From the NCBI GenBank assembly GCA_052327205.1, contig CM126209.1:49290001-49354000 (forward strand): DNA of 64,000 nucleotides, in the 5' to 3' direction. A program made the translations under genes and the position numbers. Below, piece by piece: positions 22,494 through 31,180 of this stretch. Numbering within the stretch: position 1 is the first letter of the stretch; each line of letters starts with the position of its first letter. The notes under the pieces were generated by a model, which was not told where the DNA came from, ran no database searches, and saw only the letters and a list, made by a program, of their open reading frames with translations. Source of the stretch: Somniosus microcephalus. Lineage: Eukaryota.

Positions 22494-22627
22494 CTCTGGG
22501 CGGCCGTGTTAGCATCCACCACCCCAGCAGTGTGCATCCATGATCGGACCGGATTCATCCCACTTCCTAGCGGTTCCTCTTTCATGGTCGTCCCACCTCT
22601 TGGTATATTTTCCTGAATTCCAAACAT
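22494..22627 (-). CDS. EBF3: Early B-cell factor 3 (COE3), coding exon 1 (134 nt)
   Basis: Translates [45 protein letters not shown], the N-terminus I recognise as EBF3 rather than EBF1/EBF2; ATG at 22627; donor AG|GTATGT. Confidence 0.97.
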
Positions 22628-23420
22628 TAAAACAATTTTTTTTCTGCAAAACCAGCTCCTGTACGGTTTTAGGATCGAGGAGATGTCAGATTTTTCCCAC
22701 AGCGAGTGGAGGGGGGGAATAGATGAGAGATGACTTTGCTCGTTATGATCAGTAAGAGAAAAGCCGAGTTCAGACTTGCTTCCTCTTCAAGCTGTCCTGT
22801 ATTGGCACGACATAAACAATTTCAGGAGTAGTTCAGCGCTAGTTGGATCGTGATCCGTTGTGGAGAAAAGTACAACTAGCGGGAAATTTGGTTTAAGAGT
22901 AAAAAAAAATGTTGTTTGTTGATGTTGTTCTCTCAGTGTGGTGTCATCCTGCTACAGCATCAAAGGTATTCTGCTTAGGACACTGCTGAATCGACCACTT
23001 CTGACAAGGTTCTCCTGCTCCAAGAGACAAATAAACGAAAAATGATTACCATAGAGGTGTTCCTGGACACAGGAGAGGTTGATTAGGGCCTTTAGCGTCT
23101 CACAGAATGGATGGAAACATACAAACTCAGCCCTCTTTCCCCTAGGAATGGATCCTTTCCCGGGAGCCAAAACTCTAAACCCCCGGGACCAGCGCTGACA
23201 GATTCTGACGTTTAGGGGAGGAGACAGCGGCCATGTATGGAGGTCTTATTAGCATACCCAATCGGATCGCTGCCAGCCTTGCGATTGACAGCTACAACCT
23301 GAGCCGGGTGAGCTGCCCTTCTTTTTTTTTGCTCCCTGTATATTTTTTCCTCTTCTTCTTGTACCCAAATTGACAACCAATAAAATCAAATACAGACATT
23401 ATTATTAGCATAATGAATCC
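22628..23420 (-). promoter_or_regulatory. EBF3: EBF3 5' UTR and proximal promoter
   Basis: Directly upstream of the ATG; CCAAT 23258-23262, PBX/MEIS-like CGATTGACAG 23282-23291, COE-like sites 23138-23188; TSS cannot be fixed from sequence. Confidence 0.65.
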
Positions 23421-26019
23421 TTTAGGAAAAAAAATACAACGAACGCGAATTGTTTGTCTTCAAACAGAAATTAAAGGGGCAAAATTGTTACCTTAAACAC
23501 AAACTAGTGGAGAAAGCTGTCAGATCAATACGTGTAGCGAAAACTTGCGACTGAAGTTTGTATTATAAAAGTTATAAAATAGTGTGTGCTAAATGCTCTC
23601 TTGCCTTAAAACACAATTTTCAGCTAGGCAGTGTAGAACAAATGTCAGAATAGTAATAACATTCTGTATAGAACCTACCTGAGAAATGAATCACAAGTCT
23701 GTTTCACAAAAGGGGAGGGGGGGGTCTTTAATATTTATTTAAAACGATACGTCCTTGTCAAACAATATGCCTTCTTTATACAGCTTGGAGTTTAAATACT
23801 ATTATATTGCCTTCTTTCTCCTATCCATATGGTCGTGTTATCAATTAAGGTTAAAAGATCTGGGAAGGGCCACTGAATCAGTACCCAAATTATAAGGTAC
23901 ATTTATTAGAAACAATATAAGGGCTGCGTTACGGGCTGTGTATCAACACAGCCAGCAGAAGATTTGAAGTTAGATGCTTTGAACACATGCGATCACTAGG
24001 AATTCCTGGAGATCCACATGTATTTCTAACTAGATTTTTGTTGACTAAAACTAGTCTTTCAGAGGTATTAGCTGGTGCCCAGAGGAGGGGACCCTGGGGA
24101 CGGAGGCTGCCCTGTGCTTTTTTTTTACTAAAGGTAAGAGTCCAGGCTGGAGAGAGAGAGAGAGAGAGAATCAGGGATAGTCACTTACTCAATGATCAGC
24201 TCTCTCTCTTCGTTCGTATTAGCACTTCCATCCTTTTTTTGACAATTGGCACCGTACGTACGCTAATATTTTAATTAATCGGTGAAAATCGAAGTCCGAA
24301 TTCTGTTATCAGGGGACACCATAACACTTGAATTTCAATACTCCGCTGAGGGTGAGAAAGAGCTGTGTTAGAGCAATCTATTTTCTGGTGTTGGGGGGTT
24401 AATGACTATTGCGACAGATAAGTGAATTATCAAAGCTGTTGCTATTCCGATTTCAAAATCCATTACATTGCTGGCGTCTAATTAAATACGTAAGTATAAT
24501 AAAATCATATTTTATGGCGATTGAAAGTAATAAGATTAGTCTTCAGAAGCAATCATCACATATTAAGATGCCATATAGATCTACAGAATCCTAATACTGT
24601 ATTTTAAAATCAAAATGTGCAGGAAACATTATGCATAATAAATAAAAGGAATTCTGATTTGTAGGAAACAGTGTCATATCGACAAGGAACATCTGTATTA
24701 GTAACACATTTATTACATTTTTAACCGAAAATTAAATATAAGTTACAGCTAAGTAAATCTTGATGCTATTTTTAAAATGGAATATTTGAAACCTTTAAAC
24801 AATTTAGGCGCATTTTAATTCTGCGAATCACTGGTTTATATACATATATGCAAAACATCGTTATAGTAAATTTGCATGAGTATTTAATAAGTGTAGCAAG
24901 GTAAACAAAAATGGATAATTTTAGCACTAACTAGTCAGAGTGAACATATTTATATAAATCATTTATATAATAATTGTATATATATATTTAAGAGGGCTTT
25001 CCCTTAAATCTGTTAGATGTGTTTTGCTCCAAGTCACTTACAGTGTTCTTAGACCAGATTACACACGCCGAGGCGATTTAAATCTGATTACCAAATTATA
25101 GGGTTTTAGCCAAATCCTTTTAAAGCTGATACCGTTGACTGTAAAACATAACCTGAAAAGTTCCGCAAAACCGTCACAGAGGCTACATTCGTTCTGCAGC
25201 CAAGGAGTTTTAAAACGTATTTGACAACAAATGCAGCTGCACCACTATTTTTTTTGAAGATATTAGGCGAAAATTAATGCAAATCTGTGTTCAGAAGCCA
25301 TCTGGCCAGAATAGGGGAATCAGCTGTTCCTCACAACAGGGTTTGGGCTGAATATATTTCGCTCATTTTCTATTCTCATCTGGTCTGGGCGACGAGTGCT
25401 CCAGACGATAGCGTGAAAAATACAGCCTTTATCATCCACCCCAAATTTACCATTTTGACAAACTGTTTGTAACAACCCAAATTTAATCGAGGGAAAATGT
25501 GACGACTCCGTATTGACACAACAATTTACTGCTGCCATTTCTTGTAGGGGAAGGGTTGCATAAAAGCGCCTCAAACTTCATCACTTCAATATAAAGTGAC
25601 TTTTGCGTTCAAACAAATGAGTTCCCCGTGTTTTGAAGACGTTTTCAATTTTTCTAGGTACCCTTAGTGCTTAGGGAGAAGAATTTTAATGGTACACCCG
25701 CGCGAATGTTCCCCACATTACCTTTAAACCTCAACAATTACACACACGCTCTCCTCTTTGCAAACATCTACATCCTAAATGAATGAAGCGAGATTGTCGA
25801 ACGATCTACTCGGTTCAAAAAGTGAACCCGTGGAACACATTTAAATAATTTACTACAATGGGGGCAGCACAATGAGGCAGACAGTTTTATGGGCTGTTTG
25901 TTGTCAAATATTGTTTGAATTATCTGGTTAAAAATCATATTGGGAAGTCGAGGCAGTGGTGTTGTGAAATACTGAGGGAATTATCTGGATTCTTAGTTTG
26001 GGGAGTGAGCTAGCAACCG

Positions 26020-26460
26020 CTGTTGGACAAAGAAAGGGAGCCAGAAGCTTGCGGAATTGAATCAGATTTGCATGGTCCAGTCAAAGACCTCCCGAAGTAA
26101 CGATCCTCCTTATTATGTGAAGTGTTCCTTTTTGTAAATTTACGGTGAGGGCTGAATGATACACAGAATTTGCATATAAATAGCGACATCAAGCGATTCG
26201 CGTGCCACACACCACTGGTCTCCCAGATGTCAAGCCAAAGTCAGTCAGATGGCCATTGCCCAGCCTCATGTCCCCCGCGCCAGCTGTCCTCTCCTCGCCG
26301 TCATACCAGAGCACACAGAGAGGAAAAAAATCACAATCGCTAACCAAAGACACTGCTTTTCACCAAATCTCCAGCTTTGCCTTTTGCTTTAACCCTCAAC
26401 CCCGTTTTACAAACGCTCTTTTTTCTATGGGCAGTCGACTGCCTTTGTTCAGTTTAGCTA
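26020..26460. promoter_or_regulatory. Candidate upstream enhancer
   Basis: Two octamers ATTTGCAT (26066-26073, 26168-26175), two CAGATG E-boxes (26224-26229, 26246-26251), CpG-retaining unique sequence. Confidence 0.4.
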
Positions 26461-29685: not shown

Positions 29686-30040
29686 AACCTTGGCGTATAA
29701 CCAGGACAACAACTTAAGAGCTTGAAACTTAAACAATACCTTTCATTTTGAAAATGTCATACATATTTTACACTTTGTTAATCTTTTAAGGAACATATTT
29801 TGGTAAAATACAACGTTGCTCAATAGTTCCTTTGCGAGCGCCAGTTTTGTTTCACGGGTAAACATTTGTAAAACAAAAAAAATCGCACCCATAAATTAAA
29901 ATATATTTCAAATGCGTGCACCTCGTACTACATAACCAAATGGATTAAAAGTGGCCACTTTCTGATTATTGATTAATAGCAAGATAGAACACTACAAAGT
30001 TAATGACTTAACCTCAGAAGTGACTTCTGGGTTGACATAC

Positions 30041-30129
30041 CTGTATCCCAGATGGCTGATGCTGGAGTTTTTCGTTTTTTAAAATTTTTAACATCAATCT
30101 GGATTTGAGCTCGATGAACTCAACTTCAC
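30041..30129 (-). other. Candidate upstream exon (possible alternative EBF3 5' exon)
   Basis: Acceptor gtgcagtag, donor CAG|GTATGT; open frame (G)EVEFIELKSRLMLKILKNEKLQHQPSGIQ, in phase with ATG AAA G|gtaagc at 30867-30861. Confidence 0.4.
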
Positions 30130-30949
30130 CTACTGCACATTAAATGCACTATCAAGGAAATGACCACCCTGAATAAATCAACAATATTCCTGACAGATCG
30201 ATCAATTTGTGGTTGTTTTCTTTTAGAATTGATTCGTGGCTATTATAACAATACTTTAAACACTCCACCTTTTATGTTGATGTCTACAGTATATGGTGGA
30301 GAATATAGTTTCAATCTTAAGCCCGAGTGACCGAATGTCTTCATTTAGAGAATACACATTTCGATGAAAAAAGATCAAATAAAATCGATTTATTTTGAAC
30401 TTTTAATGGTGTTTTTGCCGTTTATCACACCATGCAAATAATGAAGGGATGCAAAGGATTTTGAGTCGAGTTTGATCTGCATAGCATGCATGAAAAGTAA
30501 ACGCAACCCAAATGCTTATGTGGCAAAATAGTGATTAAATAGAACATAATTAAGAATGCAAGTTTCGAAGAAAAAGTTGAAAATATGTTACTACATTTTA
30601 ATATTATACAATTATTATATATATATACCATTATATGGAAGCATGTAAACCCAAATGTTTACTTTAAAGAACATATTCCAAACATTTTATATATATAGTG
30701 TGTCTTGTTTGTATTATATTTACGAACTATCTGTGAATTATAACAAATAACAGCAAAAGGGACATTAAAACCCAAAATAAAGAGAGCGTGTCTGACTATA
30801 ACCTATAACTGAGACTGTTATGGCATGTCAAGGTAGTGTGAAATCTAGAACATCGCTTACCTTTCATGGACAATTAGACACTAGACAGATTTTCCTTTAA
30901 AGCCAAAGTCGGAACTATTTAGCCGTCATGTTGTGTTTATTTATGTGCG

Positions 30950-31180
30950 GTGAAAGCGTGATCCTGGGCTATTTTAGTGACTTACAGGGAGAATCTTTGC
31001 AATTTCTGTCTGCAACTCAAATTGGAGTCGCGTGGCCAGTGCAAAGCCCGCTCAGGCGCAAGCGCAGTGTCTTTTGCCGGAGGAGGCGGGACGTGTGGGA
31101 CAGGGATTGCGCGACATTTCTTTGTCTTTGGCATGTAAAATTGTTCAGAGAAAGGGTGGCCAACTCTTAACACGGAACCT
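30950..31180. promoter_or_regulatory. CpG-rich distal promoter-like element
   Basis: Local GC/CpG peak with NRF1-like GCGCAAGCGC (31056-31065), GC box GAGGCGGGA (~31083-31091), ATTGG (31021-31025); minus-strand donor AAAG|GTAAGC at 30861. Confidence 0.55.

Follow-up and report, generated by a model that had tools for sequence, protein, structure and literature searches.

The EBF3 gene of Somniosus microcephalus may have a second promoter about 8.4 kb upstream of its first coding exon, in an arrangement that recalls the distal, alpha promoter of mouse Ebf1. We analysed a 64-kb window of the genome (assembly GCA_052327205.1, contig CM126209.1, positions 49,290,001 to 49,354,000; all coordinates below count from its first nucleotide), in which EBF3 lies on the minus strand. 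The layout is real as sequence, and a second EBF3 promoter is plausible on that basis: a cluster of promoter motifs precedes two candidate exons, 1a and 1b, which could be spliced into coding exon 1 after codon 5. We tentatively favour a distal transcript like that of Ebf1-alpha, carrying these exons mainly as a 5' leader and giving a protein that starts at Met15. That a spliced distal EBF3 transcript exists at all, whether with this leader or encoding an extended protein, we consider slightly more probable than its absence.

Promoter-like motifs and candidate upstream exons

The candidate distal promoter (31021..31095, minus strand) carries what we take to be a GC box (31090-31085), NRF1-type motifs (31066-31050) and a CCAAT motif (31025-31021), and no TATA box is present in this segment. 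The NRF1-type motif at 31066-31056, overlapped by a second near-match at 31060-31050, is the sole exact match to the pattern in the window. When up to one mismatch was allowed, four matches were found against 0.58 expected, two of them at the candidate promoter, with a pattern whose N position had been chosen with the site already known. The motifs coincide with the upstream boundary of a domain of 13 kb over the 5' end of EBF3 that retains CpG (18001..31200), with an observed-to-expected CpG ratio of 0.75 inside, compared with 0.28 in 31201-42000 and 0.27 in 11001-18000. An earlier sequence-only reading had described a CpG, NRF1 and GC-box promoter here; its motifs are present, but the region is not a classic CpG island, only a 200-nucleotide (nt) bump (52% GC, 11 CpG) at the domain edge.

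Candidate exon 1a (30861..31080, minus strand; the 5' end at 31080 is a guess) ends in the donor AAG/GTAAGC. It contains a four-codon upstream open reading frame (uORF), MTAK (30915..30929, minus strand), with A at -3, which ends 47 nt before a candidate upstream ATG (30865..30867, minus strand) in a weak context, with T at -3. This start reads ATG AAA G at 30867-30861 and is followed directly by GTAAGC. Candidate exon 1b (30041..30129, minus strand) is 89 nt long, or 92 nt from 30132 and 243 nt from 30283, and ends in the donor CAG/GTATGT. Joined, ATG AAA G and the 89-nt exon give 96 nt, or 32 open codons, in phase 0 with EBF3, whose exon 1 begins ATG TTT GGA ATT CAG at 22627-22613 on the minus strand. 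Each of the two donors matches the U1 consensus at 8/9 positions, the level of four real EBF3 donors. The coordinates, donors and 89-nt exon, the phase-0 join, the start of exon 1, the uORF and the weak start context had been noted in the sequence-only reading and were confirmed here. A chain of ATG, exon and exon of at least 25 codons occurs only once in the 8.7-kb interval, and it starts about 190 nt behind the sole exact NRF1-type motif.

The putative acceptor inside coding exon 1 (22612..22634, minus strand) consists of a U-rich stretch and codons 1-5, with the junction at 22613/22612. It has 9 pyrimidines in 16 positions and 29 nt without AG; a poor polypyrimidine tract had been noted earlier. 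Exon 1b is preceded by CAGTAG, so that tandem acceptors at 30129 and 30132 are both in frame; with 30123, the three nearest acceptors all keep the frame. By pyrimidine count, a crude score, 22612 ranks 67, 30132 ranks 108 and 30129 ranks 138 of 224, while the best acceptor for the donor at 30041 is 30283 (rank 8), which yields the 243-nt exon and closes the upstream frame. Two other joins were rejected: a transcript without exon 1b, or with exon 1b spliced directly to exon 2, would be out of frame and run into a stop. A repeat origin of the candidate exons was also set aside, the region giving a single match in a genome search, a result that does not prove rarity.

The gene itself was identified as EBF3 (COE3a) by its EBF3-type exon 1 and its COE DNA-binding domain. 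Coding exon 1 (22494..22627, minus strand, as are the following exons) is 100% identical to COE3 proteins, and exon 2 (22063..22219) carries the COE DNA-binding domain (Pfam PF16422, E 3e-29). Exons 3 (21644..21707) and 4 (20680..20735) belong to the open frame of exons 1-4, and exon 5 (18139..18212) was recognised by its sequence and donor. The 137 open codons of exons 1-4 are identical at all 137 positions to ray and skate COE3a; canonical COE3a proteins of sharks, rays and chimaera (e.g. XP_041065475.1, XP_069755745.1) match at 137 or 136 of 137, and some snake proteins at 136. The long intron after exon 5 holds a GC-rich CpG island at 10400-11000 (59% GC, 35 CpG in 500 nt), a possible enhancer or internal promoter.

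Predicted start-codon use and comparison with Ebf1-alpha

In the reading we favour, the motif cluster at 31.0-31.1 kb would be a likely second, distal EBF3 promoter, and transcription would begin there. The RNA would be spliced from 30861 to 30129 or 30132 (or 30283), and from 30041 to 22612, after codon 5. Entry into coding exon 1 would remove the usual start codon, so the two exons would act mainly as a regulatory 5' leader. Scanning ribosomes would meet the uORF at 30929, then the weak in-frame ATGs at 30867 and 30094 (the latter within exon 1b, with T at -3), and would mostly start at Met15, the next in-frame start available (ATG at 22585), which has a strong context with A at -3. Given the better context of the uORF, the weakness of the two upstream ATGs and the strength of Met15, most of the protein would be EBF3 without its first 14 residues, like mouse EBF1-alpha, and leaky initiation would add a small amount of a form with a net gain of 27 residues. 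The COE DNA-binding domain starts near residue 19. Since all predicted forms would keep it intact, the arrangement probably serves to provide a second regulatory input and not a new protein.

Three further EBF paralogues were found in the 6.4-Gb genome; judged by their N-terminal sequences, they are probably EBF1 (C8), EBF2 (C30) and a fourth (C2). All four genes have CAG/G after codon 5 and a T-rich stretch before the ATG. In all four, including EBF3 at 22627, the context of Met1 is weak, with T at -3. Ribosomes may thus also bypass Met1 of the canonical RNA by leaky scanning and start at Met15. A CpG-retaining domain likewise surrounds the likely EBF1 paralogue (ATG at 123753191) and ends sharply 14.7 kb upstream. 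The likely EBF2 paralogue (ATG at 14624357) has Ile instead of Met15, and an alpha-type transcript of this gene would start at Met24.

For mouse Ebf1, the literature describes two promoters 4.4 kb apart (PMC7746190) and a distal transcript without the first start codon, whose protein is 14 residues shorter (PMC4312928), which the sequence-only reading had quoted correctly. The alpha promoter is autoregulated through an EBF site (PMC5110997), and E47, EBF1 and Ikaros sites as well as STAT5 input have been described for it (PMC4312928, PMC7746190, PMC5110997, PMC5541707). According to one review, EBF1 alpha and beta are not known to differ in function (PMC4312928). The EBF3 candidate resembles Ebf1-alpha in belonging to a paralogous gene, in having a candidate distal promoter some kilobases upstream, and in the predicted loss of the first start codon, with Met15 next. 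From the loss of 14 residues, mouse Ebf1-alpha would be spliced at the codon equivalent to EBF3 codon 5/6. The EBF3 candidate differs in its distance (8.4 kb vs 4.4 kb), in its two predicted exons and in an in-frame upstream ATG, and it has NRF1, GC-box and CCAAT motifs with no nearby EBF site, in contrast to the E47, EBF1 and Ikaros sites and the STAT5 input of the mouse promoter.

Known EBF3 N-termini were compared in 300 proteins, drawn from the best 120 of 1022 and of 3174 matches together with their cluster members, a set biased to canonical forms. The canonical start was found in 263 of them; 9 were 5' read-throughs, 11 started at Met15 (including one sequence with RefSeq XP_074963904.1), 3 had another N-terminus at ENIP, 13 were without exon 1 and 1 was odd. 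In the three with another N-terminus (macaque UniProt F7B409, and plover KAM6391217.1 and KAM6391212.1), MFGIQ is replaced by a sequence joined exactly at ENIP, that is, at codon 6. These computational models share the junction with our candidate and differ from it in their peptides, which are unrelated and 12 and 63 residues long. A longer human model with a start about 9 kb upstream of EBF3 may also exist. V-L or V-F precedes Met1 in 9/9 read-through models, which fits a U-rich tract kept from Somniosus microcephalus to mammals. Taken together, the motif cluster, the edge of the CpG domain, the unique chain, the gene models of two amniotes and the Ebf1-alpha precedent make a distal promoter with exons entering at codon 6 plausible. 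This part of the sequence-only reading is indirectly supported. The extended protein it had proposed lacks direct support: no database protein matched it, its start lies in a weak context downstream of a uORF, and the stronger acceptor would close its frame.

Several observations count against the distal transcript that we favour. No RNA junction read was seen. A search of sequencing runs with 30020-31180 listed none recorded as RNA, which is no evidence either way; two runs from one study that may be RNA contained a share of 0.22 of 118 sequence words and a third run 0.04. A share of 0.22 would fit both exons with a start near 31080, exon 1a alone from 31140, or conserved DNA of a relative, and these runs do not enter into our evidence. 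The internal acceptor at 22612 is mediocre in its rank, and 11 acceptor candidates with at least 12 pyrimidines lie between the donor and this site. A motif scan detected no EBF site in 31450-30850, and EBF-type sites are about as frequent across the window as chance would make them (18 vs 14); a one-mismatch site at 32393 is likewise at chance level. No likeness to the region was seen in the 20 kb upstream of each of the three paralogues, and the alignment with the EBF1 paralogue was not above shuffles. Assembly or prediction errors may account for the macaque and plover models, both plover isoforms having the odd start, and Met15 starts among database proteins can be truncations. In cartilaginous fishes, all 25 EBF3 proteins seen start with MFGIQ and none carries the leader or uses the codon-6 acceptor, and when Met15 forms of five proteins from sharks and rays were sought by exact match, 0/5 were found. 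These two results count about equally against a leader and against a coding extension.

The codon-5 CAG also has a reason of its own. We used 62 metagenome COE loci (46-92% identity, likely invertebrate) only for the ancestral N-terminus; no vertebrate EBF3 locus with flanks was found among them. In 8 of the 62, the protein starts with MFG[IL]Q followed by D or E, and 3 further loci start MFGLH. Judging from these sequences, MFG[IL]Q is the ancestral protein start. Thus, the codon-5 CAG has a protein-level reason, and a splicing explanation is unnecessary. One likely invertebrate locus (L046, near 8119) has a strong acceptor immediately 5' of the start codon, which suggests an upstream non-coding exon.

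Chance, coding and non-coding alternatives

A somewhat unlikely explanation is that the motif cluster reflects an enhancer or the edge of the unmethylated domain, and that the splice sites and the frame are coincidental, picked from a very large scan. Donors matching at 8/9 positions number 3 in 22.7-31.4 kb and 30 on the minus strand of the window, 4 of the latter being real EBF3 donors; the local density is at background level, nothing beyond chance. Both acceptors are weak, and nothing in the annotation marks these exons. The complete chain is less ordinary than its donors: under a third-order Markov null, any such chain arose somewhere in the 8.7 kb in 54/600 simulations, in the first 1.5 kb in 2/600, and ending in GIQ in 0/600. 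The chain criteria were fixed only after the case had been seen, and the case itself came from a very large scan, so these figures make it look more surprising than it is. What chance explains poorly is the position of the chain, so close behind the only exact NRF1-type motif.

Alternatively, the same transcript could be translated from 30867, giving a selected isoform with a 32-residue leader in place of MFGIQ, so that GIQ again precedes ENIP, for a net gain of 27 residues. We consider this unlikely. The frame is open and in phase, whereas only 285/1774 local 87-nt stretches are open, and the frame-keeping of the three nearest acceptors points the same way. The weak start is no bar to initiation at 30867, since the canonical Met1 has T at -3 in all four paralogues. 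Exon 1b ends in GIQ, as does the MFGIQ start of exon 1, a correspondence that had been pointed out before and that holds. The GIQ codons of the two differ at two positions, both silent, which we count as a small point for coding. The likeness between the end of exon 1b and the beginning of exon 1 runs past the junction, with 20/30 bases identical in register; both places read GIQxxxPR, which occurs at no other point in six frames. Since MFG[IL]Q followed by D or E is old, restoring it could matter.

On a fair control with the window size left free, however, 12/1080 CAGG sites (~1%) and 3/263 CAGGT sites do as well. The match is therefore uncommon, and it is the main reason why a coding function stays in consideration. 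A micro-duplication is possible, in which the end of exon 1b would be a small, diverged copy of the sequence that begins exon 1; a larger duplication of the EBF3 5' end was rejected, wide alignments being at or below shuffles. As a precedent within the COE family, the H2d exon of vertebrate COE genes is described as arising by tandem duplication with a new donor producing a new exon (PMC2394523). H2d is constitutive and clearly homologous, whereas for exon 1b the likeness spans only 30 nt and its significance is borderline.

The database searches also speak against an extended protein. The leader peptide found no match among 5.8 billion proteins (a word-limited and hence weak search), none among 1.84 billion representative proteins and none in Pfam, and exon 1b's own 41-residue frame had no match in the protein searches. 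No homologous leader appeared among the proteins of related species, a weak result that depends on annotation; an extended form was expected to score within the best 120 matches, and none was seen in the 25 cartilaginous-fish proteins. The acceptors of the frame-keeping exon rank low, while the best one closes the frame, and the alternative N-termini of amniotes are unrelated in sequence. A putative SUMO-type LKNE motif in the leader was dropped after a literature search gave no result on EBF SUMO sites. A literature search that fell short of most subscription journals turned up no report of a distal promoter or a longer N-terminus for EBF3; Supplementary Figure S7 of PMC5997157, on chromatin upstream of the human gene, may be relevant.

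It is more doubtful still that a genuine promoter and genuine exons serve an upstream long non-coding RNA (lncRNA), one that terminates or is spliced elsewhere and is not joined to EBF3 exon 1. Stronger acceptors lie in between (24146, 26019, 25852 and 29023), some paired with 7/9 donors, AATAAA occurs at 30941 and 30394, and the codon-6 junction is in no cartilaginous-fish protein model, but this explanation leaves the frame and the GIQ ending unaccounted for. No Rfam family was found in 24600-34000, which is uninformative for lncRNAs. Within the predicted intron, exon-like pairs of acceptors and donors on the minus strand (26019, 25852 and 25774 with the donor at 25722; 29023 with 28935) could be extra leader or lncRNA exons.

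A broader scenario, to which we give equally little credence, extends the coding explanation: jawed-vertebrate EBF genes would share an ancestral distal promoter and an acceptor concealed within codons 1-5. The EBF3 distal exon of cartilaginous fishes would have come from a micro-duplication of the beginning of exon 1, its 32-residue leader rebuilding GIQ-E to give a longer alpha isoform, compared with the shorter one of mouse Ebf1.

Other features of the window and implications for EBF3

Elsewhere in the window, 50993-54638 (plus strand) contains broken gag-pol-like frames with protease, reverse transcriptase, RNase H and integrase motifs, recognised by eye, and is CpG-rich. It is likely a long terminal repeat (LTR) retrotransposon of the Ty3/gypsy type, with a CpG content like that of a young insertion. 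Four further segments, 1445-1909 (plus strand), 57198-57614 (minus), 59717-60058 (minus) and 62417-62722 (plus), presumably comprise fragments like the reverse-transcriptase end of long interspersed nuclear elements (LINEs) and a transposase piece.

EBF3 is reported to be strongly dosage-sensitive and to underlie a human neurodevelopmental syndrome, and non-coding variants near the gene are being sought (PMC11436875). If the two exons form only a 5' leader, the gain for annotation would be modest; if the leader is translated, the function of the conserved MFGIQ start would become approachable. A second promoter acting through codon 5 would place EBF3 under two-input control, as is known for Ebf1, and silent changes in codons 1-5 would then be possible splice variants. 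If such a promoter exists, the two-promoter layout would predate the split of the EBF paralogues.

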